A stretch of 25,358 nucleotides of DNA from Verrucomicrobiota bacterium (GCA_008932965.1 WBXG01000023.1:1-25358), one strand, 5' to 3'; counted from the stretch's first letter, positions 1-20,804 are shown. The notes: generated by a model from the letters alone, not told the origin. A program made the numbers and translations.

Positions 1-133
1 ACAAGGCGGGCGAAGGATTGGGATGCCGGGCTGTATGTTTCATACTGTCCAAATCACAATTCGAGACCAACGCAGTAATGATGAGCTTTCCACAAGCCGT
101 AATAGATTTAGTGTGAAATATGCAGGTTAAGGC
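1..133 (+). repeat. Copy A (5' end cut by window edge) of the multi-copy structured intergenic element, short form; candidate ncRNA or MITE-like repeat
   Basis: acaagg-N3-gcgaaggattg-N3-atgccgg-N-ctgtatg (1-37) matches copy C at 15142-15177 and, without the atgccgg and ctgtatg segments, copy B at 6431-6470. catactgtccaaatca (41-56) is identical to 13454-13469. gagctttccacaa (83-95) is identical to 6515-6527. The 3' end gtgtgaaatatgcaggttaagg resembles the 3' ends of copies C and D. It ends 27 nt before recF. Confidence 0.75.
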
Positions 134-160
134 TGAAGTTCTCCCAAAAAAACGCTCATT

Positions 161-1228
161 GTGAATATCCTCACCAGACTAACGCTCCAACATTTCCGCT
201 CTTTTTCCTCAAAATCTCTTGAGCTACATCCTGGACTCAACTTCATCATTGGCCCCAATGCTCAAGGGAAGACCTCTCTTCTGGAAGCAGCGTGTGTCTT
301 GCTACGGCTCAAGTCTCCCCTCACGCATACGCTCACTGAGGCAATTCGCTTTGGAGAGGAAGCATTTTTTTTAGCAGGAAGCTATGGAGGCAAAGAACTT
401 TCGATGCGCTTTTCACCTGGTGAGAAGGTCAAACGTCTACTCCAGATCGACGATGTCACTCAGCAAGAGACAACAGATTATTTAAGCACAGGTTGTATTG
501 TTTGGTTTGGAAGCGATGATCGAGAAATCATCAATGGCCCAGGAGAGCGACGTCGCCGTTTTTTGGATAGTGCAGGATTGCAACTTAGTAATGACTATAG
601 AAAACACTTGAAATTTTACGAAAAGGCCCTTCGTTCACGTAACTTGGTGTTGCGGAAACAGCGACCTCGACGTGAGGTAGAGGCTTACAATTCGATCCTA
701 ATAGAAAATGGAGATGCACTCATGAATCTGCGAGCACATCTTTGCAAAGCCTTAGCACCACAAGCTGCTCAGGCTTGCCATTCTATTTCACAAGAAAAAC
801 TAATGCTGCACTACCAACCAGGGGCATCCATGACCATGCGTGAGGCATTAGAAAATTCTCTAGCCAAAGAAATAGAACTCGGGATGACTTTAGTGGGCCC
901 TCACCGTGATGAGCTTCTTATTAGACTGAATGATATTCCAACTGCCACCTTCGGCTCGGAAGGGCAACGGCGTACCGTAGCCTTGTCATTGAAACTTGGT
1001 TTAGCCAATTTACTCCACCAAGAAAAATTAACCCCACCACTTCTCTTGCTCGATGACGTCTTTGGAGAACTTGATCCAGAACGTAGAAGTGCTTTACTTG
1101 CAGGATTGCCCCTAGAAGCACAAGCTCTCCTTACTACGACTGATATGGAAGGAATAGAACTACCTCAAACAACAACAACTCATTTTTTTGCTCTTAAAGA
1201 TGAAATATCTGAGCTATCCCTTTTTTAA
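161..1228 (+). CDS. recF: DNA replication and repair protein RecF
   Basis: 355-aa ORF with a GTG start. It has an N-terminal Walker A (GPNAQGKTSLLEA), the SMC-like RecF layout, and a C-terminal Walker B/D-loop (LLLLDDVFGELDPERR). Confidence 0.92.
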   Translation: MNILTRLTLQHFRSFSSKSLELHPGLNFIIGPNAQGKTSLLEAACVLLRLKSPLTHTLTEAIRFGEEAFFLAGSYGGKELSMRFSPGEKVKRLLQIDDVTQQETTDYLSTGCIVWFGSDDREIINGPGERRRRFLDSAGLQLSNDYRKHLKFYEKALRSRNLVLRKQRPRREVEAYNSILIENGDALMNLRAHLCKALAPQAAQACHSISQEKLMLHYQPGASMTMREALENSLAKEIELGMTLVGPHRDELLIRLNDIPTATFGSEGQRRTVALSLKLGLANLLHQEKLTPPLLLLDDVFGELDPERRSALLAGLPLEAQALLTTTDMEGIELPQTTTTHFFALKDEISELSLF

Positions 1229-3364
1229 CATCATTTTTTGATGCTTTAAGGCACGCTGGGGAAGAATCTCTTGAATCAATTTTTTCCAACGTTCTCGTGT
1301 AGCCTCTTTAGTAAAATTTTTTACCGAGCAAAATCCATTATTAATGAGTCTCGAGCGGAGTTCCTCACTCTCTTTGAGTCTTCGGAGCTGCACAAAAAAT
1401 TCCTCCAGCGAGGTTGCCACAAGATAGTCTTTACCTGGGTGTCCATCGCAGGCATAGGCCACATCACTTCCTCCAATAAAAGGAACTCCTGCAAGCCAGG
1501 CATTGTAGAGCTTCGTTGCTGGTTTATGATAATGGGGTGATTTTGAAAAATCACGAATACCAATCGCACAATCCACTTGACTATAATCATTCCATTCTGA
1601 GGGAGGCGCTATTGTAAAAGTAAGCCCAAGCTCTTGTTCCAGCCGATGATGCCATGCCGTTGAAATTAATTCCATGGCAAGATTTTGTTTTTCCCCGAAA
1701 AAAACAATGTTCTTAAAACAAGTCCCTCGTTGAGGATTCCGAGGAATCAAGCGGGATTGTGGCCAATGCGGTATAAAAAAAGCATTACGAAGCCTCTTTG
1801 CTTGGACCCGATTCTGAACAATATAAAAATGAGCAGTGGGATGGGGTGAGGCATCAGCCACAATATCCACCAAAAAAACATCAGGTGATAATGGGGGATT
1901 TATTCCAAAAGTGGGATCAGTAGCAGAAGTAAGAGCAAGCATAATACCACATTTTTTGGGAGCCATGGATAGATCGCAAGGAATGCTGGCCTCTTTCAAA
2001 AATTCTACTGTTTGATAAATCCAACTATGGCTACAGGTGAACTCTGTTTCAGGACTGATTTTCCCTTCCCTCCAAGCCTTTAAACACTTTTCTTGAGGTA
2101 ATAATGGCTCTGGAAGAAAAAAAGAAAGATTTTGCCATGGCTGTTGAAATTCTTCCCATAAAAGAGCTGCAATTTTTTTTCTGTGAAAAGACTCTCGATA
2201 CCGCGCCACCCAACTCCAATAAAAATTGAAAAGATGGTGATGATTTTTTTCTTTTTTTAGAACAATTTGTTGCCACGCATCAATGATCCCATCTGCTTTC
2301 TTTGTGACTTTTTTCCAGTGAAGTGAAAGAGCTTTTTTCTGTTGATAGTACAATTCAAGGCTCTTCAAATAGCTTTCATAGGAATATTCGGACCAATAAG
2401 CAAGCTCTCGAGCGGCCTCTCTTTGTTTTCCATGAACCATTGAGGCAACTTCAGCGCGTTTTTTCATTGCTTCCACTGTTGCATTCAGGGCATGGGTGAG
2501 GAGCTCCCAAACCTCTTGGGAACTAGCAGAAAAGAGTTCCATGCGATTTATCTCAATATCACAAGCAAGACTTGCAGCATGAGCAGCCAAGGACCAATCG
2601 ATCGCACATTCCTCCTCCTTTTCCTCGGCAGCTTGGGCGGCCTTGATTCTCCATTGGAAAGCAGAAGTGGCAAAATTAAGCACTCTATTCCAATGATCAT
2701 GATTTTTTTTATCACTTTCTAATAGTGGTGCCTCACACTTGCGTTGAAAGATAGCAGACAGAAGTGCTGAGTAAGCTACTAATTTGCAACGATAGATAAG
2801 CACCTCATCGTCCAAGGAGCGTGTTCCCATTTTAGCAATTTTTTGAGCATATAAAAACCAGCTCTGTGCCTCATCATAGAGGCAATTAGTCTTTGGAGCC
2901 TTTTCTAGATATTTTGTTGCTACTTTTTGAACCTGAGCAATTTCATATTCTAAAAAAGGGGAGTCGCTTACCTGAGAAACATTCATCCAATAACGGTAGT
3001 TCCAGACAGCTTCTCTCAATTCCTCTTTTTCAAAAAACCAGTATGGAGAAAGAGAAGAGAGGGATTTTTTCTCAAGAGCCTTCGCTAAACGATAACGTAC
3101 CTCTTGAGTTTTTCTGAGTGCGATGACTCTTGCATTGAAATCCCCTGGATTGGAAGTAAAGAGAATTTCATTTTCGTGACACTGCCTGGAGTAATTTCTA
3201 GCAGCATCGGAAGCGATTCTCCAGCACAGGGCGTTACTTTTTTTTCCTTCTGCTAGTGCTCTTAGAATCTCATGAGAATAGAGAGAGAGGCTTTTTTTAT
3301 TGGAATAAGGCTCTTTTAATAATGAGTTTTGTAATTCAAATGACTTCATGCATGAAAAATTCAA
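1214..3364 (-). CDS. Unknown two-domain protein: N-terminal Trp-containing all-helical repeat region (paralogous to the 3455-4648 product) plus a C-terminal alpha/beta domain that may be GT-B glycosyltransferase-like
   Basis: 716-aa uninterrupted ORF. The N-terminal ~400 aa align with the neighbouring 397-aa protein (ALCWRIASDAARN vs ALCWRIVADAACN; RIKAAQAAEEKEEECAIDWSLAAHAAS vs RIKAAEASHQKDEVTAIKWSLAAAAAA). The C-terminal ~300 aa contain IVFFGEKQN...KPATKLYNAWLAGVPFIGGSD, reminiscent of the nucleotide-sugar-binding half of GT-B enzymes; that similarity was judged by eye only. Its 3' end overlaps the recF 3' end by 15 nt, convergently. Confidence 0.7.
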   Translation of the reverse strand: MNFSCMKSFELQNSLLKEPYSNKKSLSLYSHEILRALAEGKKSNALCWRIASDAARNYSRQCHENEILFTSNPGDFNARVIALRKTQEVRYRLAKALEKKSLSSLSPYWFFEKEELREAVWNYRYWMNVSQVSDSPFLEYEIAQVQKVATKYLEKAPKTNCLYDEAQSWFLYAQKIAKMGTRSLDDEVLIYRCKLVAYSALLSAIFQRKCEAPLLESDKKNHDHWNRVLNFATSAFQWRIKAAQAAEEKEEECAIDWSLAAHAASLACDIEINRMELFSASSQEVWELLTHALNATVEAMKKRAEVASMVHGKQREAARELAYWSEYSYESYLKSLELYYQQKKALSLHWKKVTKKADGIIDAWQQIVLKKEKNHHHLFNFYWSWVARYRESFHRKKIAALLWEEFQQPWQNLSFFLPEPLLPQEKCLKAWREGKISPETEFTCSHSWIYQTVEFLKEASIPCDLSMAPKKCGIMLALTSATDPTFGINPPLSPDVFLVDIVADASPHPTAHFYIVQNRVQAKRLRNAFFIPHWPQSRLIPRNPQRGTCFKNIVFFGEKQNLAMELISTAWHHRLEQELGLTFTIAPPSEWNDYSQVDCAIGIRDFSKSPHYHKPATKLYNAWLAGVPFIGGSDVAYACDGHPGKDYLVATSLEEFFVQLRRLKESEELRSRLINNGFCSVKNFTKEATRERWKKLIQEILPQRALKHQKMMLKKG

Positions 3365-3371
3365 ACAGCTT

Positions 3372-3444
3372 CTTAACCCGGATATTGTATACTAAACGTA
3401 ACAAGGCTTCGCATGATGAATCATCATATAATATTCAGAGCAAG
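3372..3444 (-). repeat. Mini-copy H of the intergenic element (5' arm joined directly to 3' arm), minus-strand orientation
   Basis: On the minus strand it reads CTTGCTCTGAATATTATATGATGATTCATCATGCGAAGCC, about 70% identical to the 5' arm of copy C. This is followed by ...GTTTAGTATACAATATCCGGGTTAAG. ATATCCGGGTTAA is identical to the copy D 3' end, and GTTTAGTAT is shared with the copy B 3' end. It fills the 90-nt gap between the two paralogous genes. Confidence 0.6.
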
Positions 3445-3454
3445 GTATTTTTTG

Positions 3455-4648
3455 CTAACTAAAATAGACTTCTTTTGATGAAGGATCAGAGATCATTCTT
3501 CTATATTTTTTCTCTGCATAAAGAGCTCTTCTCTGCTGGTAGAGACGAGCAAGAGTGAAGCTTCGCTTGGTTTCGAGCTTCTTGAAATGTTTCCAAAGAG
3601 AGGCAACATGCTTAGCACCTTTTGTAGCTATTTCCCACTCTCTATTTGCTAGGGGATAGGATGACATGTAGGCTTCAATGACTTTGGTATAACAGTCATA
3701 ATAGTGTTCACTCCAAAAGGCAGCGTGATCCGAAAGAATATTTTTTTTCTTTAATGAGGTACTGTTTTTTCGCAGTTGCATTGTCTCCTCTGCTGCATGG
3801 AGCAAGTTATTCCAATGAGTAATAAGGCACTGATCTCCTATGGGGAATAATTCAAGCAGTTGAGTGTGAGCCTCTCTAACCTGGGCAGCTGCAGCTGCTG
3901 CTAAAGACCACTTTATAGCAGTTACTTCATCCTTCTGATGGGAAGCTTCTGCAGCCTTGATCCTGGCATAAAAAGCCTCCTCTCCATAATGAGCTGCCTC
4001 TTTCCAATGATATAATAGAATTTCATTATTCCTCGATCGAGAGGCCTCTACATGAAGATACGCAATGGCTACCTCAACAGCAGCACAGGCGGTTATTCGA
4101 AGGTGATAAGATTCTAGCAATGCTCTAGCAATTGATATGTTTTGAGCTTTTTTAAAATAGTTTGCTGCCTCTTCTGCAAAAAAAGAGACCTCTGGGGCGA
4201 GAAGCCTATATTTTTCAGCTGCCTGCTGCGTTTGCTCTATTTCGCTCTTCCATAAGTGAACACTTCTGGTCACGGATTGAAGAATCAAAGCAGCATAGCT
4301 TTCTGCTATCTCTTCCATTCCCTCTTGATTAAAAATCGATTCCTCAGTCCAAATTTGGCTAGAAACAGGCTGTTTATTAAGATGAGAACGAGATTTTATC
4401 CTGGACCCATCAAGATTCGCTATTTCCTCTTCACGATCAGCGTGAAAAATCCGGGTTAATGGTATTTCGTGATTCAGCCCATGAGCTAAAAAGGAACCTG
4501 GCAAGGAAATAATCTCGTTAGACTGATTCTCTTTAGATGCATTGCATGCAGCATCAGCAACAATTCTCCAGCAAAGTGCTAAAAGATCACAATGATTTCC
4601 CGTAGCTTTAAGAGCCTTATTACGATAAAAAAAGAGCGTTTTTGTCAA
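3455..4648 (-). CDS. Unknown Trp-containing helical-repeat protein, paralog of the N-terminal region of the 1214-3364 product
   Basis: 397-aa ORF, colinear with the N-terminal ~400 aa of the 716-aa neighbour. Shared blocks include ALCWRI, RIKAAxA...AIxWSLAA and FWSEHYYDCYTKVIEAY vs YWSEYSYESYLKSLELY. I recognise no known domain. Confidence 0.7.
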   Translation of the reverse strand: MTKTLFFYRNKALKATGNHCDLLALCWRIVADAACNASKENQSNEIISLPGSFLAHGLNHEIPLTRIFHADREEEIANLDGSRIKSRSHLNKQPVSSQIWTEESIFNQEGMEEIAESYAALILQSVTRSVHLWKSEIEQTQQAAEKYRLLAPEVSFFAEEAANYFKKAQNISIARALLESYHLRITACAAVEVAIAYLHVEASRSRNNEILLYHWKEAAHYGEEAFYARIKAAEASHQKDEVTAIKWSLAAAAAAQVREAHTQLLELFPIGDQCLITHWNNLLHAAEETMQLRKNSTSLKKKNILSDHAAFWSEHYYDCYTKVIEAYMSSYPLANREWEIATKGAKHVASLWKHFKKLETKRSFTLARLYQQRRALYAEKKYRRMISDPSSKEVYFS

Positions 4649-4707
4649 AGTTATTATTTTTTAAAATACTCTTGCAAATTTAGTTATTCATACCACTTTT
4701 ACTATAA

Positions 4708-4744
4708 AGCCCAGATGAAATATCTGGGCTAGATTTTCTTTTTG
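4708..4744 (+). terminator. Intrinsic-terminator-like hairpin in the divergent region upstream of dnaA
   Basis: Perfect 9-bp stem agcccagat / atctgggct (4708-4716 / 4722-4730) with loop gaaat, followed by agattttctttttg. No + strand ORF lies upstream. gatgaaatatctggg also resembles the 3' terminus of the repeat family (gtatgaaatatccggg). Confidence 0.35.
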
Positions 4745-4941
4745 TTCCATTCCCTAGCCTAAGTGAGTGTCAGGTCAAGCATTTTGAGTCTTGGGCTTCA
4801 AAAATATATCCTTTAAAACAAGATTTTTTCTTGAGTGGAGTAATGATTTTTTTAAAATAGAAAGCCATTTTGGAGTATTCCTTTTCTTTTTCTCCAGATT
4901 TAAAGCGACCTCCCTTCATCTTTACCCCTTTACGTTTTTTC

Positions 4942-6288
4942 ATGGACCTTAATAACCAAAAAATCTGGGAACAACTCTCTACCGTCCTTCAGCAACGCAT
5001 TAGTAGTGATGGCTATCAACGCTGGTTTAGTGATGTTTCTATTTTGAGCTATGATACAAAATCAATTAACCTGAGTGTCCCTAATCCTATTCATCAGTTT
5101 TTTATCGAGAGTAATTATTCCGCTCTCCTTTCCTCCTCAATAGAAGAAATTTTCAAAAGCACGCGTCAGCTTCATTTTATACCGCGTGAGCTCCAAGAGC
5201 AGGATATCGATCTTAAATCAAAAAATCCTCTACTGCCTCCTTCTATTGCCAAAAAAGCCTCTGCTTCCTTGGGTTTAAATCCTTCCTATACCTTCGAAAA
5301 TTTTATTGTTGGAGCCAACAATCAATTTGCCCATGCAGCTGGACTGGCTGTAGCTCAAAGCCCCGCCAAGACCTACAATCCTCTCTTTATATATGGTGAA
5401 AGCGGCCTTGGTAAAACACATCTTCTTCATGCAATAGGCCATCACATCTTAGCTCATAAAAAGGGAGCGAAAGTCGTCTACCTGCGCAGTGAACAGTTTA
5501 CGAACGAATTTATTGATGCGATTCAGCATGGAACACTCTTCCAGTTTCGCAAGCGTTACCGACAAGCTGATATTCTCATGATTGATGATATCCAATTCTT
5601 CGCTGGAAAAGAGCGATCGCAGGAAGAATTTTTTCATACCTTTGGTGCACTCCATGATGGACACAAACAAATCATCCTCACAAGTGATCGCTCCCCTAGT
5701 GAAATTGAAAAATTGGAAAAGCGACTTGTCTCCCGCTTTGAATGGGGCATGACAGCAGAGGTACAGCCTCCTGATATTGAAACACGCTTAGCTATTTTGC
5801 ACAGAAAAGCAGAGACTCTTGGAATGATGATTGAAACATGGGTGCTCGAATTTTTAGCTGAACATATTCGTACCGATATTCGCAGAATGGAAGGAGCCTT
5901 AATGCGCGTGATGGCCTACCAATCACTTAGCGGAAAGCCACTCCAACAACAGGATATCAATCACCTTTTGCGTGATGTTTTTCAAGAACAAGCCCGTAAA
6001 AATATTACAATAGATCAAATTCAAAAAAGAGTTGCTGACTATTTCGATATTCGTCTTGCAGATATGTCAAGTAAACGAAGGCAAGCTAGTATCGCCTATC
6101 CTCGACAAGTAGCCATGTATCTCGCACGTGAAATGACTCCCTCCACACTCAAGGAAATTGGGGAAGCCTTTGGAGGAAAAGATCACGGAACAGTGATTCA
6201 TGCACACAAACTTATTAAGAAGCGCATGGATGGAGATCTTCGTTTGAGAGATCTCATGCGCCAACTTGATAAACAATTGGCTCAGTAG
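4942..6288 (+). CDS. dnaA: Chromosomal replication initiator protein DnaA
   Basis: AAA+ Walker A GESGLGKTHLLHA, Walker B ILMIDDIQF, and domain IV HTH (RQVAMYLAREMT...IGEAFGGKDHGTVIHA). The ORF track starts at a TTG at 4870. The ATG at 4942 (MDLNNQKIWEQL...) gives a typical DnaA N-terminus, so I prefer it. Confidence 0.93.
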   Translation: MDLNNQKIWEQLSTVLQQRISSDGYQRWFSDVSILSYDTKSINLSVPNPIHQFFIESNYSALLSSSIEEIFKSTRQLHFIPRELQEQDIDLKSKNPLLPPSIAKKASASLGLNPSYTFENFIVGANNQFAHAAGLAVAQSPAKTYNPLFIYGESGLGKTHLLHAIGHHILAHKKGAKVVYLRSEQFTNEFIDAIQHGTLFQFRKRYRQADILMIDDIQFFAGKERSQEEFFHTFGALHDGHKQIILTSDRSPSEIEKLEKRLVSRFEWGMTAEVQPPDIETRLAILHRKAETLGMMIETWVLEFLAEHIRTDIRRMEGALMRVMAYQSLSGKPLQQQDINHLLRDVFQEQARKNITIDQIQKRVADYFDIRLADMSSKRRQASIAYPRQVAMYLAREMTPSTLKEIGEAFGGKDHGTVIHAHKLIKKRMDGDLRLRDLMRQLDKQLAQ

Positions 6289-6377
6289 AAATTTTTTCAC
6301 CTCAATGAATTCATTTAAAACAACCACTCATCGATAAGTCTTAATAATTCATAAGCAAATAATAATGATTAGAATGC

Positions 6378-6558
6378 TACCCTAATATTTTATACTGAAT
6401 CCTTATGAGTCACCGTTTAAGGCGTATTAATACAAGGCTAGCGAAGGATGGTCATACTGGACTGCAGGAATAGATACCGCCGCAATGATTATCTGAGACC
6501 AGCGTAGTTGCCATAGAGCTTTCCACAAACCGTAACAGGTTTAGTATGATACATCGGG
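6378..6558 (+). repeat. Copy B of the structured intergenic element, short form, in the dnaA-dnaN spacer
   Basis: The terminal helix accctaatattttatactgaatc (6378-6400) pairs with aggtttagtatgatacatcgggt (6536-6558), including several G-U pairs. Internal blocks shared with copies A and C are attaatacaagg, gcgaaggat, gagaccagcgtag and gagctttccacaa. Confidence 0.8.
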
Positions 6559-6665
6559 TCTCAATCTTTTTTCTTTATTGAAACTATCCTTAGCGCTGCA
6601 ATGATGATTATTCTTCCTCGATTTTTATCTCCATTTTTCACTCCTTACTCGTTACTTTTTATAAA

Positions 6666-7781
6666 ATGAAATTCACGGTTACCAAACAAGCACTTCTGGA
6701 TGGGTTGCAACGTATTCAAAATATCATTAGCACTCGTGTCACCCTTCCTATCCTCTCCAACCTTCTTTTAGAAGCAACCGAGCATGGTCTTACTTTAGTA
6801 GCCACAGATCGTGAAGTAAGCCTTCGTACTTTCGTAAACGCTATTGTTATCGACAAACAAGGATCAACGACCTTGCCTGCACGTCGTCTTCTTTCCATTA
6901 TTAGAGAGCTTCCTATTGAGGAAATCTCTTTTGAAACGGATGCCCGGCATATTACTTCCATTCGGAGTGGCGCTAGTTTTTTCAAAATTTTTGGATTACC
7001 TAAGGATGAGTTCCCTGAGTTCCCTTCTTTAGAGGAGACGCGAGGTTTTATCATGAAACAAGGGGTGCTCAAGGATGGGCTTCACAAGACCTCCTACGCT
7101 ATTTCTTTGGATGCTTCACGTTATGTGCTCAATGGAATTCTTTTTTCTTTCAAGGAGGGTTCTCTTACTCTTGTGGCCACCGATGGGCGTCGCTTAGCTC
7201 TTTGTGATGCAGAACTAGGTGAGATAAAATATCCAGCAGATCATGAATGTGATTTTATTGTTCCTACAAAGGCGATTAATGAACTCGAACGGTTGCTTTT
7301 AGATGAACAAGAAGTACGTCTTTTTGTGGGGGATAATCTTGTAGCTTTTGATCTTGGTGGATCTGTACTAGCTACAAAATTAGTCGATGGAAAATACCCT
7401 AATTATCGCCAGGTTATTCCTTCTGAAGCAACGGAGCGCATCACCTTAGAGCGAGAGCAACTGTTACAATCCGTAAGACGCGTTGCTCTCCTTAGCAATG
7501 ATAGGAGTGGTTCTATTTGTTTTCATTTTTCAGAGCACAATTTGGATATTACTTCTAATACTCCTGAAGTAGGAGAGGCCAAGGAATCCCTCTCTATTGT
7601 TTACAAAGGACCGAGGCTTTCCATTGCATTTAATCCTGATTTTCTCATGGATCCTCTTAAAAATCTCAATGATGATTTCGTTGCCCTAGAGCTCATTGAT
7701 GAAATGAGTCCTGGTGTTTTTAAAATTAATTCTGGTCAACGATTTCTCTACGTTTTGATGCCCATACGGGTTTCTAAGTAA
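6666..7781 (+). CDS. dnaN: DNA polymerase III beta sliding clamp
   Basis: 371-aa ORF downstream of dnaA. It has the typical clamp N-terminus (MKFTV.K..L...L......V..R..LPILSNLLLEA) and a length consistent with three domains. Confidence 0.93.
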   Translation: MKFTVTKQALLDGLQRIQNIISTRVTLPILSNLLLEATEHGLTLVATDREVSLRTFVNAIVIDKQGSTTLPARRLLSIIRELPIEEISFETDARHITSIRSGASFFKIFGLPKDEFPEFPSLEETRGFIMKQGVLKDGLHKTSYAISLDASRYVLNGILFSFKEGSLTLVATDGRRLALCDAELGEIKYPADHECDFIVPTKAINELERLLLDEQEVRLFVGDNLVAFDLGGSVLATKLVDGKYPNYRQVIPSEATERITLEREQLLQSVRRVALLSNDRSGSICFHFSEHNLDITSNTPEVGEAKESLSIVYKGPRLSIAFNPDFLMDPLKNLNDDFVALELIDEMSPGVFKINSGQRFLYVLMPIRVSK

Positions 7782-7801
7782 TCAGGGCTGAAAAGAGACT
7801 A

Positions 7802-9400: not shown

Positions 9401-9422
9401 TTTTTAACTATATCAACTGTTA

Positions 9423-11523: not shown

Positions 11524-11672
11524 TAAAAATTAAGTAGTCAAGAATATGAGATGAATCATCAGAGTCAAGATCTGCTAAGGGCCCGATAAAAGAAAGAATG
11601 TCTGTGATCCATGGATAAAATATATTCATAGCCAATTAGAATAAGAATTTTCTCTTGGCGCTACATGACGCT

Positions 11673-13121: not shown

Positions 13122-13237
13122 AGTATCTTTAATAAGTAAAATGATTTTAAATTAGGTCGTAAACAATATGGCTGATTTTACAATTAATACAATCGGGACC
13201 TTTCATTCTTCTCCATACAGGGGGAATGTTTTTGATT

Positions 13238-13258
13238 AAAAATGGAAGCTTCCTTCCA
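13238..13258 (-). terminator. Weak candidate intrinsic terminator on the minus strand, downstream of the permease gene and copy D
   Basis: The minus strand reads TGGAAG-GAAG-CTTCCA followed by TTTTTAATC. The stem is only 6 bp, so support is weak. Confidence 0.3.
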
Positions 13259-13271
13259 AAAATGGATTTTC

Positions 13272-13542
13272 TAACCCGGGTATTTCATACTGATCGTGAC
13301 GAGCTAGCTACAAAGACTGATGGGGTACCACGGAGGTCGGGAGACCGCAGGGGAGACTGCCCTGGCTTTAAGGGGGCAGCCCTGAAAGGGCGAGACGAGC
13401 GGGAGCGAGCGAGTCAACGCAGGCGAGCATTTTGATGTAGGGCTGCATGTGTACATACTGTCCAAATCAAAATGTGAGTCTAACGCAGCATCCATCTGGC
13501 TTCACGGCTTACGCAGTAGATCGGTATGAAATATCCGGGTTA
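13272..13542 (+). repeat. Copy D of the structured intergenic element, long form with the 81-nt GC-rich insert at 13339-13419
   Basis: The terminal helix 13272-13295 / 13519-13542 forms 24 consecutive pairs (22 Watson-Crick plus 2 G-U on the + strand). The 3' half is colinear with copy A (catactgtccaaatca, taacgcag, gaaatat..gggttaa). The GC-rich insert is 78/81 identical to 20627-20707. The last 3 nt coincide with the permease stop codon. Confidence 0.85.
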
Positions 13543-15033
13543 AAGCTCATCCTCAAAGGAGAGACCCTCTGTTTTATATTTTTTACAGAACTGAATAAAA
13601 CGAACACTTGTAATAAAAAGGTAAAAAAGGAATGAAACAACTCCTACATAAATGAGATTTTGATAAACGTAGATCATTGCCAAGTAACCCATGAAAGGAG
13701 TAATGAGGCCTAAGAGGATTAAAAAATTATTCTTCTTGGTTAATTGCACTCCTCCATAAATCACCATGAGTACCACTAAGGATATAATCATCATAAATAA
13801 ATCATGTTTTGGAAGAGTCGTCATAATAAGCCCAAGAATCACAAAAACAATAACTCCATAAACACGTGTCTTTGGCTTAATAGCTCCCATACTGATAGGT
13901 GCAGCCATATAACCTAGAAGATTGTAACCTGTAACCACAACCATGAGAGACGACCAGCTTTCAGCATTCCAGAGAACAACAGCAATCATCACCCAATTAA
14001 TGAGCAGAGAACGTCTGCAAAGATTATAAATAGGATTGAGTTTTCCTATAGACCATTGTGGCATCTGACCTTCTGCAGCCATGGCATAAAACATTCGAGC
14101 CGAACCTCCAAGATAGGCATATCCAGTACCTGAAGGGCTAATGACACTGTCAGCCATTAGTAAAATCACAAGAAAATGGAGCCCTAGGAGTATTGCTAGA
14201 TTTAATAAGGGAGAATGAAAATTCAGCGAACTCCATCCCGCTTGTAACATTTCGTGAGGAACAGCTCCCATAAAGGCAAGTTGTAATGCCATATAGACAA
14301 ACATTACGATGACGATCGAAAGCACGATGGAGAGGGGAACATTTCTTTTTGGCTTTTCTATTTCACTAGCAAAGGCCACGGCTAACTGAAAACCGTTAAA
14401 AGAGTAAATGAGACCAGCTCCTACAATCGCACCAAGAGCCGATCCAGCAGTATAGACATAATGAGAGTCTAATTGAAAATTACTTGTATCAAATCGTGCA
14501 ATAAGAAAAAGAACGATCGTAAAAATGGGGGTAAAGATTTTTAATGCTGTGACGATATTATTTACTTTGGCAAGTAATTTGATTCCGTAAAAATTGACAA
14601 TTAAGTATAAAAACAAAATACCCAGAGCAAACAATTTTCCATAAATCGTTAACCCATGATCATTCATGAGATCGGTATTTTTAAGAGCAGCGGATAAATA
14701 TTGAGTAGTAGCCTGCGCTTCAGTAGCAACACAAACCATAATGCCAAACCAGTTAGCAAAGGCAAAAGGCATTCCAAAGATGGAATTATGAGACAAGGCA
14801 CTTGAGCGTGTAGTAGCACCACGGACTGGAAAGACGGAAACAACTTGAGCCAAGCAAAGCCCTACAGGCATCACAAGTAGGGCAGCTAAGAACCAGGCAA
14901 GAAAAGAATAATTTCCAGCAAGTTGAGCATTGAGCTGTGCACTAAAGAGCCACCCAGATCCGACCATTGCCGTCGCACTTAAGGCGGTAGCGCTCAAAAG
15001 GGATATTTTTTTGTGGTTCGTTTTTTCAATCAT
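13540..15033 (-). CDS. Amino acid/polyamine/organocation (APC) superfamily permease
   Basis: 497-aa hydrophobic ORF with about 12 predicted TM segments. The N-terminal TM1 region SATAMVGSGWLF is typical of APC permeases. Confidence 0.85.
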   Translation of the reverse strand: MIEKTNHKKISLLSATALSATAMVGSGWLFSAQLNAQLAGNYSFLAWFLAALLVMPVGLCLAQVVSVFPVRGATTRSSALSHNSIFGMPFAFANWFGIMVCVATEAQATTQYLSAALKNTDLMNDHGLTIYGKLFALGILFLYLIVNFYGIKLLAKVNNIVTALKIFTPIFTIVLFLIARFDTSNFQLDSHYVYTAGSALGAIVGAGLIYSFNGFQLAVAFASEIEKPKRNVPLSIVLSIVIVMFVYMALQLAFMGAVPHEMLQAGWSSLNFHSPLLNLAILLGLHFLVILLMADSVISPSGTGYAYLGGSARMFYAMAAEGQMPQWSIGKLNPIYNLCRRSLLINWVMIAVVLWNAESWSSLMVVVTGYNLLGYMAAPISMGAIKPKTRVYGVIVFVILGLIMTTLPKHDLFMMIISLVVLMVIYGGVQLTKKNNFLILLGLITPFMGYLAMIYVYQNLIYVGVVSFLFYLFITSVRFIQFCKKYKTEGLSFEDEL

Positions 15034-15084
15034 AAAATTTCTAAGTTCATCAGGAAAATGGCAGCTGACGATGAATCCAAACGC

Positions 15085-15272
15085 GCTAGCCTGAATAATT
15101 TATACTAAATCATCATGAGGCGCCGTGCAAAGCTCATTAATACAAGGGGGGCGAAGGATTGTAATGCCGGACTGTATGATTATAAGAACCATGAAGCTAT
15201 TCAATTCTGATTCAGTATCAAACAGACTTTCTCAAGCCACAGAAGAATTTGTATAAAATATGCGGGTCTACC
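15085..15272 (+). repeat. Copy C of the structured intergenic element, short form
   Basis: The terminal helix gctagcctgaataatttatac (15085-15105) pairs with gtataaaatatgcgggtctacc (15251-15272). attaatacaagg-N4-gcgaaggattgtaatgccggactgtatg matches copy A positions 1-37 closely. It lies between two minus-strand genes. Confidence 0.8.
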
Positions 15273-15317
15273 ACGAGTCAAGCTGATTTGATTTTATGTG
15301 TTGTTTATTTCTGTAGC

Positions 15318-17909
15318 TCACCTTACTGAAAATCTATTTTTTTTCTTAGCTACTAAAGTGCTGCGAGATTTTGATGGTTTTTCTACTTTTTTTGAAACTA
15401 CTTTTTTAAAGGGTACTTTTTTAGAAGAGGCACTCACTTTTTTCTCGCGCGGTTCAAACTCAAAACTGACTTTATTGGCCTCTAGCTTGAGGTAGGCAGA
15501 AAATTTACGTCCTTTTTTAGAGACAAAGCCTGGAATCAAATCTGTTTTTCCAGAACTGAGGAGTTTAGCTGCTTGCACGGGAATGATCTCTCTTTGGAGA
15601 ATCATCTTACCTATACGAAAGGAACATCGTTCCTCTTTTTCTAATGAGCGATCACAGACATAGGCATTCATTCCAATTCGAACAACCCCTTTTTTACAGA
15701 GGGGGCAATCTCCTACAGATTCTGCAGCGCGTAGAGTTTCAAGAGCAGCGGGATCATCCTCACGTTCACCAAAAGAAAATTTTGTTTTTCCTTCTTCATC
15801 TAAAAGAATGGTGGCTGCAAAAAGTTTTCCAAAACGACTTCGGAATCCTTCCAGAGGACCCACCTGTTTGTTTTCAAGTAATTCTCGGACTTCTTCACGA
15901 TTAAGGGGACGACTTGCAACCGATTTCCAAACGCTTAAACCGCAACCACGGCATTTGAATTGGCGTATGTTTTCTTTGAAAAGACCTTGGCCACACTGAG
16001 GACATTGCACCTCCAGGTCAGGAAAAACTCCTGTATCTGCATCGTCATGAAATCCTTTAGCTTTTTCAATAATATCCGAGGTAAATGCTCGTATCTCTTT
16101 CATGAATGCAGGACGCTCTATTGTTCCAGCCTCCATTGCTTTGAGTTTGAATTCCCATTCACCAGTCATCTCCGGTGAAGTTAAAACGGCAATACCCATA
16201 TGCCTCAAAAGATGAATCAAGGCCATTCCCTTGCTAGTTGGCGTGAGCTCGCGTCCTTCACGAAGAAGATAATTATCTAGAAGGAGGCCTTCAATAATAG
16301 CAGCACGCGTTGCAGGCGTCCCTAGCCCACGTTGACTCATTGCATCACGCAGCTCTTCATCCTCCACAAATTTTCCAGCTCCCTCCATCGCACTTAGCAA
16401 TGTTGCCTCAGTAAACCGTGCTGGAGGTCGCGTCTGAGCCTCGTGCATTTCGACATTAATAGTTGAAGCAGCTTCTAATGTTCCTTTCTGAGAGGCAACC
16501 GCTACGAGCCTCTTATCTTGGTTTCCCTCTTCAGCTTCTAGCTTCTTTCCATAGACTGCTAACCACCCGGGATCGGTAAGAATTTTACCTTCACTTTTAA
16601 AATGCTCCCCCTCCACTGTTGTGATACGTGTGGTCACATCAAAACGGGCTGGAGGATAAAAAACAGCCACAAGTCGCTGGGCTACCATCTGGTAAATCTT
16701 GGCCTCCATCTCATCGAGCTTTGCTATGGAAGCTCCTGTAGGAATGATAGCATGATGGTCCGAGACTTTTTTATTATTGAACACTTTTCCTGTCTTCACG
16801 AGCCATCCTTTTTCTAGCAAGAGAGCTGCGTGTGCATGAAGTTCGCGGTCTTCTAATTTTTCTAATGCCTTTCGCACTCCAGCAATAGTATCCTCAGGGA
16901 GATATCGAGAATCAGTACGAGGATAAGTCAATACTTTGTGATGTTCATAAAGCCGTTGCGCCAGTTGCAGTGCTCTCTTGGCACTGAGCCCAAAGCGACT
17001 GTTAGCTTCACGTTGCAAGGTCGTTAAATCGTAGAGAAGTGGTGAGGCTTGGGAGGTAGCTTTTTTTTGCTCCTCGATTGACCCTGGTTTTCCTTGGCAT
17101 TTGACACAAATGGCTTCTGCTTGCTCTCTCTCCCAGAGGCGTTCTGGCTTGCGATCCTCCTCTTCTCCTTTTTTGAAATTAGGGTCAAACCACCTTCCTT
17201 CATAGGTTCCTGCATCTACTTCAAATTCTCCATGAACTTCAAAATAGGTCTGAGGATCAAAAGCACGTATACGCTCTTCTCTCTCGGCCAAAATCGCGAG
17301 TGTCGGAGTCTGCACGCGTCCTACAGGAGTGAGCTGAAAACCTCCACCACCGGAATTTAAAGCGGTGAGAGCTCGTGTGCTATTAATTCCAACAAGCCAA
17401 TCACTCTCTGCTCGGCAGAGTGCCGCATCTGCTAAATGTTCCATCTCCTTGGCCTGACGTAGATGAGCAAACCCCTCCCGAATCGCATCAGGGGTCATCG
17501 ATTGAAGCCATAAGCGTTGAACGGGCTTCTTGATTCTAGAAAGTTGTATGATGTTATGGAAAATGAGTTCTCCTTCACGGCCGGCATCACAGGCATTGAT
17601 CACCGAGGTAATATCGGGACGTTTTAATAATTTTTTGACCATTGCGAATCGATCTGCAGAACGAGCAATCGGCTTGAGATCAAATTCTTCAGGGAGGATT
17701 GGTAATGTTGCTAGCCCCCAAGGAATTCCTTTTCCGTGAGTCATCGAACTTGGAAGAGAAAGCTCTACAAGATGACCTACAGCAGAGGTAATGAGGTAAT
17801 TGTTCACCTCAAAAAAATCGACCTTACCAGCCTTGACTTTACCGCCAAGAGCCCTTGTTAAGTCAGCTGCAACACTCGGTTTTTCTGCGATAACAAGAAT
17901 TTTGGACAT
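15318..17909 (-). CDS. Type IA DNA topoisomerase, topoisomerase III-like, with C-terminal zinc ribbons and a Lys-rich tail
   Basis: 863 aa. TOPRIM N-terminus ILVIAEKPS, active-site Tyr motif LTYPRTDSRYLP (topo III style), C-terminal CPQCG...CRGCG and CPLCKKG...C motifs, and a basic tail KKVSASSKKVPFKKVVSKKVEKPSK. Confidence 0.9.
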   Translation of the reverse strand: MSKILVIAEKPSVAADLTRALGGKVKAGKVDFFEVNNYLITSAVGHLVELSLPSSMTHGKGIPWGLATLPILPEEFDLKPIARSADRFAMVKKLLKRPDITSVINACDAGREGELIFHNIIQLSRIKKPVQRLWLQSMTPDAIREGFAHLRQAKEMEHLADAALCRAESDWLVGINSTRALTALNSGGGGFQLTPVGRVQTPTLAILAEREERIRAFDPQTYFEVHGEFEVDAGTYEGRWFDPNFKKGEEEDRKPERLWEREQAEAICVKCQGKPGSIEEQKKATSQASPLLYDLTTLQREANSRFGLSAKRALQLAQRLYEHHKVLTYPRTDSRYLPEDTIAGVRKALEKLEDRELHAHAALLLEKGWLVKTGKVFNNKKVSDHHAIIPTGASIAKLDEMEAKIYQMVAQRLVAVFYPPARFDVTTRITTVEGEHFKSEGKILTDPGWLAVYGKKLEAEEGNQDKRLVAVASQKGTLEAASTINVEMHEAQTRPPARFTEATLLSAMEGAGKFVEDEELRDAMSQRGLGTPATRAAIIEGLLLDNYLLREGRELTPTSKGMALIHLLRHMGIAVLTSPEMTGEWEFKLKAMEAGTIERPAFMKEIRAFTSDIIEKAKGFHDDADTGVFPDLEVQCPQCGQGLFKENIRQFKCRGCGLSVWKSVASRPLNREEVRELLENKQVGPLEGFRSRFGKLFAATILLDEEGKTKFSFGEREDDPAALETLRAAESVGDCPLCKKGVVRIGMNAYVCDRSLEKEERCSFRIGKMILQREIIPVQAAKLLSSGKTDLIPGFVSKKGRKFSAYLKLEANKVSFEFEPREKKVSASSKKVPFKKVVSKKVEKPSKSRSTLVAKKKNRFSVR

Positions 17910-18270
17910 GAAAATGAAATAGAGCTTTTGTTTCTAATGATGCTTTATACTTACCAAAGAATGTTAGGAGATGATACACTGAAGCTCTCAAGGTACGAAT
18001 GGACAAACCTACGAAAACTAAAGAACTATGCAAGAAGGACCTACTCTTCATCTAAAGTGATGTAACTGCAGGAGGGTATTGGAAATCTAGGATTAGAAGC
18101 AATTTTAATTTTAATCTTGACTCTTGTTTTTGCTGCTTCCTCTTAAGAATTGCAATGCATGGACATTAAGAATAATGTCGCAAAGAATTATAATTTTCGT
18201 TTATTAATCAGTTTCCTCTTTAGGCCTCACCAATACTAGTTTTACCACTCGCTCTTGTTCCCATAATTTA

Positions 18271-18792
18271 ATGAATATGATCTCAGAGGCTTATCTCTCT
18301 CTTCTCGAAGCACTCCGTGTTAGTTGTAAATTACCAGAATTCCCAGATCCGCTTCCTTCAACTCAACTCGATTTAGAGTTGGAAAACGGACCTACAGTTA
18401 CTATCGATTTTGAAGAATCAGGCGAACTTGTGGTCATTTTTTCTCAAATTGGAACTTATTCTCCTGAGCAAGAATTAGAAGTTTTAAGAAAAATTGCAGA
18501 AGCTAATTTTCTCTGGACATCTAGTGGTGGAGCGACTCTGAGTGTTCGTCCTGAAATTCATACAGTCTACCTTGCATATCAAACACCTGCCTCCAGTTTA
18601 ACTGGTCTCGACTTTATTCAACGTGTTGAAAAATTCGTCGAGATAGTTCTTCAATGGCAGCACACTCTCTCTCAAGGCACTCTTGAAGAACCCCTCAATC
18701 AAGATACTAACGAATCCTCTTTAAACCCATTAGAAGCAGAAAAAGAGACGGCGCTCCCCACGCCCGGCAGTAATAATTACATTCTGGGATAA
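18271..18792 (+). CDS. Type III secretion chaperone-like protein (CesT/SycE-type fold) with an acidic C-terminal extension
   Basis: 173 aa, acidic. The pattern LLEAL...L.LD.E.G.TVTIDFEE.GELVVIFSQIG......E.E.LRKIAEANFLW..SGGATLSV......VYLAY......L....F...VEKFVEIVLQW matches the architecture of class I T3S chaperones. This is assigned by pattern recognition only. Confidence 0.55.
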   Translation: MNMISEAYLSLLEALRVSCKLPEFPDPLPSTQLDLELENGPTVTIDFEESGELVVIFSQIGTYSPEQELEVLRKIAEANFLWTSSGGATLSVRPEIHTVYLAYQTPASSLTGLDFIQRVEKFVEIVLQWQHTLSQGTLEEPLNQDTNESSLNPLEAEKETALPTPGSNNYILG

Positions 18793-18803
18793 ACACTCCC
18801 AAC

Positions 18804-18890
18804 TAACCTGAATAGTTCTTACTGATCGTGACAAGGAGGTCGTGAAGCCAGATGGATACTGCGTTAAATTTTCCGTTTCCCTTCAGGTTA
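18804..18890 (+). repeat. Mini-copy G of the intergenic element: 5' arm of about 60 nt plus a short 3' end
   Basis: Closed by taacctgaa / ttcaggtta (18804-18812 / 18882-18890). Positions 18805-18865 are colinear with the copy D 5' arm at 13273-13333 (aacc.g..ta.ttc.tactgatcgtgac...aag.c.gatgg..tac). It lies between the convergent ends of the chaperone-like gene and sufE. Confidence 0.7.
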
Positions 18891-18896
18891 TTAGGA

Positions 18897-19382
18897 TTAT
18901 TGAGTTGCATGACGGAGCAGCCGTTTTTCCCATACTTGAGAAGCCGTTTTAAGACGCGTGAGTAGATAGTAAACAGTTTGGCTGCGAGCACGAATAAGTT
19001 CTGCTCCTACAATTTTTGGAACAAAATCTTGGGGAATTGATTGTAGCTCTTCTGAGGTGATTCCATTGAGCCCTTTACACAAAATAGAACTCATAGCACG
19101 TGTTAAGGTTTGAACATGAGGGCCTAGTTGAATCTTAAAATAGTATCTTTGATTCTCATCCATCTTAAGATAGATACCAACGGAATCAGTGCATTCCTCA
19201 TCTTTTCGGACGTCTTCAAAATCAAAAACTTCTCCTTCTTTTGGGGAGTAGTTTTTGGATTGATCAGCGTAAGCAATGAGGGTCTCCCTCCGTTCTAATT
19301 CTGATAAACTTTCAAAAAGAGAAATAATATTTGCTAGTTTTTTAGGATAGTGACTCATAAGAAAAATAGAGAGTTGCTGCAC
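18897..19382 (-). CDS. sufE: Cysteine desulfuration protein SufE (sulfur acceptor)
   Basis: SufE-length ORF with a conserved Cys region (DEECTDSVGIYL) and SufE-like helices. The ORF-track start is a GTG at 19382. An ATG at 19358 (MSHYPKK...) is an equally plausible start. Confidence 0.8.
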   Translation of the reverse strand: MQQLSIFLMSHYPKKLANIISLFESLSELERRETLIAYADQSKNYSPKEGEVFDFEDVRKDEECTDSVGIYLKMDENQRYYFKIQLGPHVQTLTRAMSSILCKGLNGITSEELQSIPQDFVPKIVGAELIRARSQTVYYLLTRLKTASQVWEKRLLRHATQ

Positions 19383-19496
19383 AATTCATTCATCAAGCAC
19401 GAGCCACTGGATATTCATCACTGAAAGTCTGATGTATAAAAACTGTTGAGGGTTTGTTGCTCTTGTTGGAGTAGACTCATGCCTTGCAGTGACCCA

Positions 19497-20369
19497 TTAG
19501 CCATGATTTTCTTTTTTTTCTATCGGGGCTCCAACACGATTTCCCCACTCCGTCCAGGAACCGTCATAATTACGAACATGAGAAAATCCAAGAAGATAGG
19601 TTAGCACAAACCATGTATGGCTAGAACGCTCTCCAATTCGGCAATAGGCGATGACATCATCCTCTAATTGAAGCCCTAATTCCTGCTGATAAATTTTTCG
19701 TAATTCTTCTGCAGATTTGAAGGTCCCATCCTCATTGACTGCACGCTTCCATGGAACACTATGAGCTCCTGGAATATGACCACCTCGCAAGACCCCTTCT
19801 TGTGGGTAATCGGGCATATGAGTAATTTCTCCAGAAAATTCTCCAGGAGAGCGAACATCTATAAGAGGACGTTTCTGGTGACTATGAACTAAGGTATTTT
19901 CAAAAAAAGCTCGAATCTCATCATCAAGGCGTTTCAAAGGAATGGAATAGCTAGAAGGGGTTCTTTCTGGAAGATCACGAGTCAAAGGACGTCCCTCCGC
20001 TATCCACTTATCACGCCCTCCATTCATCACTTTGACCTTGGTATGGCCAAAAAGACGAAAAACCCAAAGCGCATAACAAGACCACCAATTGGACTTGTCA
20101 CCATAAAAAATAACTGTGGTTTCTGGAGTAATTCCATGACGAGAACAGAGTGCTGCAAAATCTTGAGGCTGGATATAATCTCGGATTAGCGGATCTTGCA
20201 AATCACGTCGCCAATCAATATGAACTGCACCTGGAAGATGACCTGTATCATAGAGTAGAATATCTTCATTGCTTTCTACGATACAAAGCGAAGGATCGAT
20301 TAAATGATCAGCTAGCCACTCTGTTGATACGAGTGCCTCTGGGTGAATGTAGTTAGAATTAGGAAACAT
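19497..20369 (-). CDS. Thiosulfate sulfurtransferase (tandem rhodanese domains)
   Basis: 290 aa with two rhodanese domains. The catalytic loop [12 protein letters not shown] (CRxGxR) is typical of SseA/CysA-type thiosulfate sulfurtransferases. Confidence 0.9.
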
Positions 20370-20490
20370 AGTTGAGATTCAGTAGATGATTACATAGTGA
20401 TTCTCTATTGCCAAGGAACAATAAAAAACAAACTAGAAGAACAGGCCCATTCAACCTAACAACGTGAATGGGAAGGGAAATAAGGTTATA

Positions 20491-20560
20491 GCAGGGTGCA
20501 GTGCTAGGAACGAGCCCACAGATGCACGGGAAGAGGCATCCATCTGACTTCTCGGCTTAG
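20491..20560 (+). repeat. Partial copy F (3'-half fragment) of the intergenic element, directly abutting copy E
   Basis: gcatccatctgacttctcggcttag (20536-20560) matches copy D 13488-13512 at 22/25. gcagggtgcagtg resembles gtagggctgcatgtg of copy D. No terminal helix partner was found. Confidence 0.5.
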
Positions 20561-20804
20561 CCCGCCTATTTTATACTGGTTCATCGCGAGGCGCCGCGAA
20601 TCCTGATGCAGAAACCACAGGCGGTAGGGAGACCGCGGTGGAGACTGCCTTGGCTTTAAGGGGGCAGCCCTGAAAGGGCGAGACGAGCGGGAGCGAGCGA
20701 GTCAACGAAAGCTATTGATTACCTAATACTGCAGAAGAAATTTGAATCTAACACAGCAGAGATGAAGATCTTTCAAGGCGCAGTGGAAGTATCCTGAAGT
20801 AAGC
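20555..20804 (+). repeat. Copy E of the structured intergenic element, long form with the 81-nt GC-rich insert at 20627-20707
   Basis: The 5' arm tattttatactggttcatcgcgaggcgcc resembles copy C (aatttatactaaatcatcatgaggcgcc). The insert is 78/81 identical to 13339-13419. The 3' half gaatctaacacagcag...ctttcaaggcgcag is colinear with copies A and D. The outer closing pair is gctta / taagc (20555-20559 / 20800-20804). Confidence 0.8.

Follow-up and report, generated by a model that had tools for sequence, protein, structure and literature searches.

Several families of short repeats in bacterial genomes, such as Correia in Neisseria, RUP in Streptococcus pneumoniae, ERIC/IRU and MITEPye1, are shorter than 300 nt, non-coding, bounded by terminal inverted repeats, flanked by short direct duplications and present in many intergenic copies; they fold into long stem-loops, and their ends match those of a family of insertion sequences (IS). 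RUP, for example, derives from IS630. MITEPye1 of Paracoccus yeei was defined as a miniature inverted-repeat transposable element (MITE) by the same criteria (PMC11578231). We found a repeat family with all of these properties in a stretch of 25,358 nt from a Verrucomicrobiota bacterium (GCA_008932965.1, WBXG01000023.1:1-25358), the whole of which is referred to below as the window. The pieces are very probably copies, decayed to various extents, of a MITE family that colonised a lineage of the Chthoniobacterales. They have IS1380-type ends, unlike MITEPye1, which goes with IS1182, and they are far denser than MITEPye1, of which there are 1-3 copies per chromosome (PMC11578231). They are further set apart from the comparator MITEs by a 4-bp duplication of the form YTAR, by the presence of three or four diverged subfamilies sharing one architecture, and by an optional nested structured module. 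No description of an IS1380-derived MITE, or of any MITE in Verrucomicrobia or Chthoniobacterales, was found in the limited literature searched.

The ends of IS1380 elements start with CC, and their duplications are 4-5 bp long (ISfinder family description). The window repeats resemble this family (ISEcp1, IS1247 and ISPme1 among its members) in the terminal CCCGNATATTTCATAC and in the YTAR duplication, as seen in the intact element L104 and the 13 relics described below, whereas they differ from IS1380 elements in having no transposase and only weak similarity past the terminal ~20 nt. Terminal inverted repeats and target duplications with such features are also known from piggyBac, for which IS1380 transposases have served as the prokaryotic outgroup (PMC10813416). 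Like piggyBac, the repeats have a TTAA duplication, occasionally replaced by CTAA, TTAG or GTAA, and termini that begin with CCC and end with GGG; piggyBac elements, however, are eukaryotic and have transposases of at least 500 aa, whereas the related transposases here belong to PF13701/NF033539 and CTAG is a common target. The likeness to piggyBac is a resemblance of end signatures, not membership.

Ten pieces of this single repeat family were located in the window, totalling 1326 nt or 5.2% of its length. A reading made earlier from the sequence alone (the sequence-only reading) had listed eight pieces, all of which proved by repeat finding, sensitive blastn, multiple alignment and nhmmer with profiles from related genomes to be related repeats lying at about the coordinates it gave, but it had missed two, an arm at 4400-4459 and a micro-relic at 4711-4733. 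Its statement that the pieces occupy 7 of the 12 intergenic gaps was right against the list of open reading frames (ORFs). The limits given below include the flanking 4-nt duplication where this is recognisable.

1..130, plus strand: copy A, subfamily SF2, corresponding to positions 57-186 of the 186-nt consensus (nhmmer)
3372..3444, no strand assigned: copy H, a mini-copy of ~70 nt, internally deleted, with a good 5' inverted repeat TTAACCCGGATATTGTATAC and the other end degenerate
4400..4459, minus strand: solo 5'-arm fragment of 60 nt, SF1 type, consensus positions 1-60, inside the 397-aa ORF 3455-4648
4711..4733, no strand assigned: micro-relic, a 19-nt palindrome CCCAGATGAAATATCTGGG followed by CTAG, in the spacer upstream of dnaA
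6380..6558, plus strand: copy B, SF2, decayed, with ~71-76% identity to A and C, between dnaA and dnaN
13271..13543, plus strand: copy D, SF1 long form, with CTAA at 13271-13274 on the left and TTAA at 13540-13543 on the right
15086..15270, plus strand: copy C, SF2, decayed, with CTAG on the left and a degenerate right flank, between the permease and topoisomerase III genes
18804..18890, plus strand: copy G, an internally deleted mini-copy with the 5' inverted repeat and one arm, the far end degenerate
20491..20556, plus strand: piece F, the 3'-arm remnant of an SF1-type copy, 92% identical to D 13488-13511
20557..~20806, plus strand: copy E, SF3 long form, with TTAG on the left and a degenerate 3' end

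The family was followed across related genomes. When one genome per GTDB species was scanned with the strict end pattern TAACCCGNNTATTTCAYACYRA, the count of copies in relatives, which the sequence-only reading had proposed as a check, came to at least 84 stretches, far beyond chance and, among the matches listed, nearly all in four metagenome-assembled genomes (MAGs) of Chthoniobacterales/Spartobacteria. In 0.58 Mb of related contigs nhmmer gave 197 profile hits, and 98 elements were bounded by facing inverted repeats, 70 of them ~184 nt and 14 of them ~265 nt long (both sets among the matches listed). The terminal inverted repeat, CCCGNATATTTCATAC..., is 20-23 nt long and is perfect in many copies of the related MAGs. 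The elements are polar, an arm of '5' type' always being at one end and an arm of '3' type' at the other, and the arms define three or four subfamilies, namely SF1 (copy D), SF2 (copies A, B and C), SF3 (copy E) and an SF1 variant. The blocks that the sequence-only reading had taken to be shared by the whole family turned out to be mostly specific to subfamilies and to correspond largely to the SF2 and SF1 consensus sequences. All subfamilies are present together in each MAG, and the family therefore predates these species. Decay products are common, including truncated halves, minis of 65-90 nt like G and H, and solo ends.

The flanks of the 98 bounded elements carry the signature of transposition. 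The 4-mers on the two sides are identical in 69 elements (TTAA/TTAA in 45, CTAG/CTAG in 13, CTAA/CTAA in nine, and GTAA/GTAA and TTAG/TTAG in one each), and the non-palindromic flank pairs are direct in 11 cases and inverted in none, so that they represent a 4-bp target duplication, with the consensus YTAR and mostly TTAA, lying outside the inverted repeat. Tandem elements share a single TTAA, and in the related MAGs one element is inserted into the internal CTAA of another's consensus. Filled and empty sites were seen in comparisons between species rather than strains: the gap between the permease and topoisomerase III genes is 285 nt in the window, where it holds copy C, and ~45 nt in the Kiruna MAG (L051), where there is no element; in the Tobar MAG (L021), the exact site of a pair of nested elements is the stop codon of a gene, and in Kiruna (L010) the gap after the orthologous gene is 8 nt. 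We also noted that the L021 element supplies a TAG, and that the L010 ortholog ends in TGA.

In 21 of the 98 elements (loci L007-L090) a neighbouring ORF of 80 aa or more takes its stop codon from the duplication. Copy D is one such case, the stop codon of the permease ORF 13540-15033 on the minus strand being supplied by its right-hand TTAA (13540-13543). Since every YTAR target holds TAA or TAG on both strands, an insertion at a stop codon regenerates a stop and is harmless, and stop codons appear to be a neutral landing site. This stop-codon-neutral insertion, together with AT-rich spacers, accounts for the pile-up of elements in intergenic gaps.

Judged by sequence, the family has every attribute by which a MITE is recognised at that level, in that its members are small, lack a transposase, fold as a stem-loop, and have terminal inverted repeats, direct duplications and ends in common with an IS. 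Among the three explanations offered by the sequence-only reading, the MITE is strongly supported by the inverted repeats, the 4-bp direct duplication, the discrete sizes, the nesting, the filled and empty sites and the IS1380-like termini. Searches of NCBIfam and Pfam bore out that no transposase gene is present in the window, and the claim that no ORF is conserved also stood, as the subfamily consensus sequences have no shared reading frame; the only ORF ever called inside an element was one of 57 aa in D, in related contigs.

The sequence-only reading could not assign the repeats to any IS family, whereas we found that their ends match an IS1380 subgroup. An intact element of 1625 bp (L104:2786-4410), flanked by CTAG on both sides, has the ends CCCGGATATTTCATAC... 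and ...GTATGAAATATGCGGG (in full, CCCGGATATTTCATACGCAAAT and ATCTGCGTATGAAATATGCGGG), and its protein, P0029, scored 358 bits against NCBIfam transpos_IS1380 (NF033539), for which the cut-off is 180. The same 16-nt termini occur in the MITE and in the L104 element, and similar left ends are present in L102 and L103. Elements that encode NF033539 or PF13701 proteins have exactly the same CCCGNATATTTCAYAC termini and YTAR duplication as the repeats. A protein search with a reconstructed fragment gave 582 relatives with PF13701, P0029 among them, and most of the full-length hits also had PF01609.

Relics of such elements were found in other MAGs and in metagenomes. In a Phycisphaeraceae MAG (L077, 2260-2821), facing ends 562 bp apart enclose a remnant of the PF13701 N-terminus (E=1.3e-5), and in an Opitutaceae MAG (L016) an IS1380-type transposase N-terminus starts 100 nt inside the end. 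An end variant, ...CAYACCAAAA, which was taken from the L077 and L016 relics and is absent from the MITE arms, was followed by the same transposase N-terminus ~130 nt inside the end at 11 of 11 loci in metagenomes, most of them internal-deletion derivatives of 560-600 bp. There are therefore 13 relics in all with IS1380 transposase remnants, comprising the 11 metagenome loci, L016 and L077. The derivatives of Phycisphaerae type (L077, L091-L098) still encode fused stubs of the N- and C-terminal parts of the transposase (P0002 and P0006), and the IS1380 subgroup made up of L077, L091-L098 and L104 has piggyBac-like ends, with a TTAA/YTAR duplication and CCCG...CGGG termini.

As read from these sequences, the termini and the target of the window repeats are those of this IS1380 subgroup, and because both are held in common, mobilisation in trans by a DDE transposase of IS1380 type is most likely. 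We infer that such an enzyme is present in the host lineage or was so formerly. An intact element is non-coding and 184 nt long, or ~265 nt with the extra module, starting with CCCGNATATTTCATAC and ending with its reverse complement. Under the mechanism that we propose, an IS1380-family transposase supplied in trans would recognise the shared termini and insert the element at YTAR, preferably TTAA, duplicating the four bases. Movement could be by cut-and-paste or by copy-out, and the hairpin along the whole length would be kept because it helps transposition rather than for a function as RNA.

The same termini bear on another candidate of the sequence-only reading, in which the repeats would be orphan guide RNAs serving an enzyme encoded elsewhere, and on a related possibility, in which they would be end relics of IS200/IS605 (TnpB/IscB) or IS110 elements. 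Such an origin would suit elements that hold no protein gene, are highly structured and show a modest strand-specific excess of G.U pairs. However, the repeats have well-supported terminal inverted repeats and 4-bp duplications, neither of which is a feature of IS200/IS605 or IS110 elements; nothing like a variable guide adjoins a constant scaffold, as the flanks consist of YTAR alone; the termini match those of DDE elements of the IS1380 family; and no TnpA, TnpB, IscB or IS110 gene was detected in the window with NCBIfam and Pfam. We therefore regard a guide-RNA origin as extremely improbable.

Several observations weigh against the derivation of the repeats as MITEs moved by an IS1380 enzyme. 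A search of the window and of ~0.58 Mb of contigs from Chthoniobacterales revealed no gene for an IS1380 transposase. Beyond the terminal 16-21 nt and the target there is essentially no similarity between the MITE and IS1380 elements, and the sole subterminal similarity, to the far end of the L104 element, is weak (68% over 73 nt, E=0.002). In a single MAG, the copies closest to one another share at most 96-97% identity, with a median of 92%, and current activity is thus not evident. As for the fold, the element is a conserved hairpin over its whole length and not at its ends alone: double changes between subfamilies keep a pair in 96 cases and break it in 42, and single changes at paired positions produce G.U against A.C at a ratio of 182 to 68 cells, or 94 to 49 positions, which hints at a constraint on one single strand beyond the plain needs of a DDE element. 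The missing gene may reflect the fragmented state of the MAGs, from which multi-copy insertion sequences drop out first. Transposase remnants are kept in the 560-600-bp derivatives of other phyla, not in the 184-nt elements.

An autonomous partner was sought between pairs of inverted repeats 1-4 kb apart in the MAG contigs, and none was found; the distant pairs enclosed only ordinary host genes, encoding KAS, a glycosyltransferase, an M29 peptidase, a beta-lactamase and QueD. Multi-copy ORFs, used in the same contigs as a proxy for a transposase, were only paralogs and orthologs. Subterminal homology between the MITE arms and the IS ends of Phycisphaerae type was considered as well and was not significant. 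The gene queD lies between two facing solo ends (L066:2767-3264), as does the 397-aa ORF of the window between copy H and the arm at 4400-4459. Members of IS1380 move adjacent DNA by means of surrogate ends (PMC9330008), and by analogy a capture of genes through such ends is possible at queD and at the 397-aa ORF.

The folding data bear most directly on the third candidate of the sequence-only reading, an 'ornate' RNA family, in which the elements would be genes for structured non-coding RNAs (ncRNAs) and their spread would be secondary. That reading had noted that the 5' and 3' arms are complementary, and this held: copy D has inverted repeats of 24 nt with 92% identity, and whole elements fold as one rod-like hairpin. 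The consensus sequences of the subfamilies form a single rod of ~70 base pairs, with -92 to -103 kcal/mol for 184 nt, and copy D had z-scores relative to shuffled sequences of -5.96 on the plus strand and -5.14 on the minus strand. Hairpins of such stability (~-95 kcal/mol for 184 nt, z ~-6 for D), the compensatory changes between subfamilies, the preference of single changes for G.U on the plus strand, and the better folding of the plus strand, seen in 86 of 90 copies, would all suit an RNA gene. The difference between the strands, however, is mostly compositional, because the shuffled plus and minus strands of D are already 13 kcal/mol apart and the two z-scores are similar, and we rejected the strand asymmetry in folding energy as proof of an RNA. 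Covariation between the arms is, moreover, expected at the DNA level in a transposon with inverted repeats. Among singletons the ratio of G.U to A.C was 54 to 40, as compared with 42 to 35 in an unpaired control, a bias that by our own estimate is weak and not clearly different from the control. A wobble bias derived from a naive arm-to-arm alignment was likewise set aside as weak (363 versus 280). At most there is a weak hint that propagating lineages preserve the hairpin on one strand, with no evidence of an RNA gene.

The genomic context of the elements also argues against ncRNA genes. The search of Rfam, which the sequence-only reading had proposed as a check, gave no match at gathering thresholds over the whole window, and at E<=10 there were only chance-level hits on D, on the full-length A and on two stand-alone modules. 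No promoter or terminator common to the copies was seen. The orientation relative to genes is unbiased, with 20 co-oriented, 31 anti-oriented, 28 convergent and 20 divergent contexts. The claim that the copies read only on the plus strand is true for the long copies in the window but does not extend to the 197 copies in the related contigs, in which neighbouring copies have the same orientation in 70 cases and different orientations in 48 (n=118). No orientation linked to replication was apparent, as there was no GC-skew switch in the window and no strong concordance between copies. Target duplications, nesting, halves and minis are decay of the transposon type and not what is expected of genes under selection. 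That the whole element is an RNA gene thus seems very improbable, and what stands of the ornate-RNA proposal is confined to the module nested in D and E, which behaves like an independently conserved structured unit.

Another explanation is that the family is an old, immobile repeat kept by the host for a role of intergenic DNA, such as nucleoid organisation, a recombination site or the protection of transcript ends, like REP/BIME or ERIC. The repeats are very dense, with 7-8 of 12 gaps and 5% of the window occupied; the family is old, all subfamilies being found together in several species; copies share 92% identity with the closest other copy and are not exact duplicates; and the window copies are unchanged among strains of 99.4% identity. 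On the other hand, the copies decay freely, B and C being 71-76% identical to their relatives and others being reduced to halves, minis and a 19-nt relic, and orthologous gaps in a sister species have no elements. The missing identical copies are uninformative, since such copies collapse in short-read assemblies. REP/BIME sequences are palindromic, 20-40 nt long and free of target duplications, and their conserved head is GTAG or CGTC (PMC3733652), whereas the elements of the window are 184-265 nt long, start with CCCG and have a YTAR duplication. Retention by the host as an immobile repeat consequently appears very unlikely, and the MITE remains the interpretation that we adopt.

What distinguishes the long copies D and E from the 184-nt form is a GC-rich insert of 85-100 nt with four hairpins, located in the window as follows.

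13328..13418, plus strand: GC-rich four-hairpin module nested within the 5' arm of D
20615..20706, plus strand: GC-rich module nested in the 5' arm of E, at the same offset of 57-58 nt as in D and 92% identical to the D module

This module can be told apart as a unit of its own. Several MITE subfamilies carry it 57-58 nt from the 5' end, in the element's own orientation, and another set of MITEs carries it within the apical hairpin, at 97-100 nt from that end and in the opposite orientation. Outside MITEs, it was found after a tRNA-Gln gene, inside the duplicated 3' half of the tRNA (L039:7049-7134), and upstream of ilvH, between that gene and an iscS-like gene, followed by a T-run (L039:1992-2083); a further copy adjoins a solo MITE end (L067:5159-5242), and another has no MITE profile hit nearby (L057:6567-6655). 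It is also present in four phage-like contigs of IMG/VR, with GC contents of 52-57%, where it occupies spacers between phage genes of replication type, among them genes for RadC, an RNase T-like exonuclease, an RNA ligase and an SNF2 helicase. Further copies have these positions.

L105:4655-4740, module copy
L105:6772-6857, module copy
L107:7106-7179, module copy
L109:2363-2448, module copy
L109:3206-3287, module copy

Most copies in the phage contigs are identical to the MITE copies in the 3' 31 nt of the module, GGGGCGAGACGAGCGGGAGCGAGCGAGTCAA, and in the phage-like copies helices P1 and P2 are altered by compensatory substitutions. A covariance model built from 22 copies found 40 copies in the DNA examined. 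In the 40-copy alignment, which was fitted to the model and with which an independent MAFFT alignment of fewer lineages agrees, changes occur on both sides in 15 of 24 pairs, 87.5% of cells are paired, and the covariation score is 0.264, compared with 0.128 after shuffling (reached in none of 500 shuffles) and no more than 0.067 with the partners slid. The loops are often GNRA (GGGA, GAAA and GUAA). The module has no inverted repeats and no obvious duplication, and its 3' end is always GAGTCAA(C/T); in these respects, unlike the MITE proper, it may be compatible with elements of the IS200/IS605 or IS110 kind. It had no match in Rfam, and BLAST gave none in the INPHARED phages or PLSDB; the MITE itself had no BLAST match among the PLSDB plasmids. 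Nothing relevant to the module sequence was found in the literature searched. We tentatively suggest that the module could be an undescribed structured nucleic-acid element, hitch-hiking on the MITE. It may be either a small structured RNA that the MITE has picked up and dispersed, or a tiny mobile unit in its own right that acts through a folded single strand.

At one of the stand-alone sites (L039:6923-7175), the 3' half of a tRNA-Gln(CTG) gene recurs as a 42-nt direct repeat 137 nt after the gene. This pattern is the signature of an integrase-type insertion, yet only ~137 nt, mostly the module, lie between the repeats. The module there is within a segment resembling an anticodon arm, ahead of the duplicated 3' half.

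For annotation, these data imply that the repeats should be masked as transposon debris and not taken for RNA genes or small ORFs, of which the 57-aa ORF in D is an example. The repeats probably also explain why this lineage has been assembled only into contigs of no more than 50 kb. The family provides an example of a MITE of IS1380 type and points to an IS1380 subgroup with the end signature of eukaryotic piggyBac (TTAA/YTAR target, CCC...GGG), and it illustrates stop-codon-neutral targeting in a compact genome. Only the nested module has the potential to be something new, the remaining repeats being ordinary MITEs of a known kind, in Chthoniobacterales.

Some of the individual pieces deserve comment. 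Copy A has lost its 5' part at the start of the window and retains the 3' inverted repeat GTGTGAAATATGCAGG and a TTAA at 127-130; uncut, on a longer contig (L001:3283-3470), it is 188 nt long, has TTAA on both sides and ends in TTAACCCGCATATTTCATAC... and ...GTGTGAAATATGCGGGTTAA. Contigs L001 and L002, otherwise nearly identical, diverge exactly at the left end of copy A (position 3283, just outside the window), with an ABC-F ATPase upstream on one contig and a tyrosine recombinase on the other, and the divergence is either an assembly chimera at the repeat or the result of recombination between copies. In copy B the flanking duplication is no longer recognisable. Minis of 65-70 nt like copy H are also present in related MAGs. 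The micro-relic at 4711-4733 consists of the outermost bases of both inverted repeats joined head to head, and may have arisen by extreme deletion or have been left behind by an excision. Piece F stops where copy E starts, which would fit either an insertion of E into F or a decay of the two side by side.

The arm at 4400-4459 and copy H face one another, delimiting a unit of 1087 bp (3373-4459) that holds most of the 397-aa ORF 3455-4648. We considered this unit as an autonomous element and rejected it, as the enclosed ORF has no significant family match and the right 'end' is a solo arm. The ORF had no significant match in Pfam or NCBIfam and, by eye, appears to encode a helical protein. The arm is in frame with the annotated N-terminus of the ORF; the true start may be an ATG near 4316, in which case the arm would be upstream of the start codon. 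This 60-nt arm, a palindromic repeat inside an annotated coding sequence, recalls the Rickettsia palindromic elements, which are not known to be associated with ends of IS1380 type or with YTAR duplications.

The window has a GC content of 42% and contains recF (161-1228), dnaA (4870-6288), dnaN (6666-7781), purM and purF, together with genes for an amino-acid permease (13540-15033, minus strand), topoisomerase III (15318-17909, minus strand), a rhodanese, L28 and RNase PH. Its DnaN protein was found in identical form on many metagenome contigs (in 32 blocks), all of them 50 kb or shorter, which are 99.4% identical to the window. Topoisomerase III and the adjoining permease share 84-85% identity with those of the MAG 'uncultured Spartobacteria Kiruna_bin-02438', in which the two genes are likewise adjacent, and on this basis the host is an uncultured member of the Chthoniobacterales (Verrucomicrobiota). 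No GC-skew switch was found across positions 1-25358, and a replication origin is therefore not evident within the window; recF and dnaA are separated by two unknown minus-strand genes, and the genes downstream of dnaN are mostly on the minus strand. The ORF at 18271-18792 (173 aa) has a match in Pfam to CesT/Tir chaperones of type III secretion (PF05932, E=4.5e-10). Such a match would not be expected of a verrucomicrobium that lives freely, and it may point to a life in association with a host.

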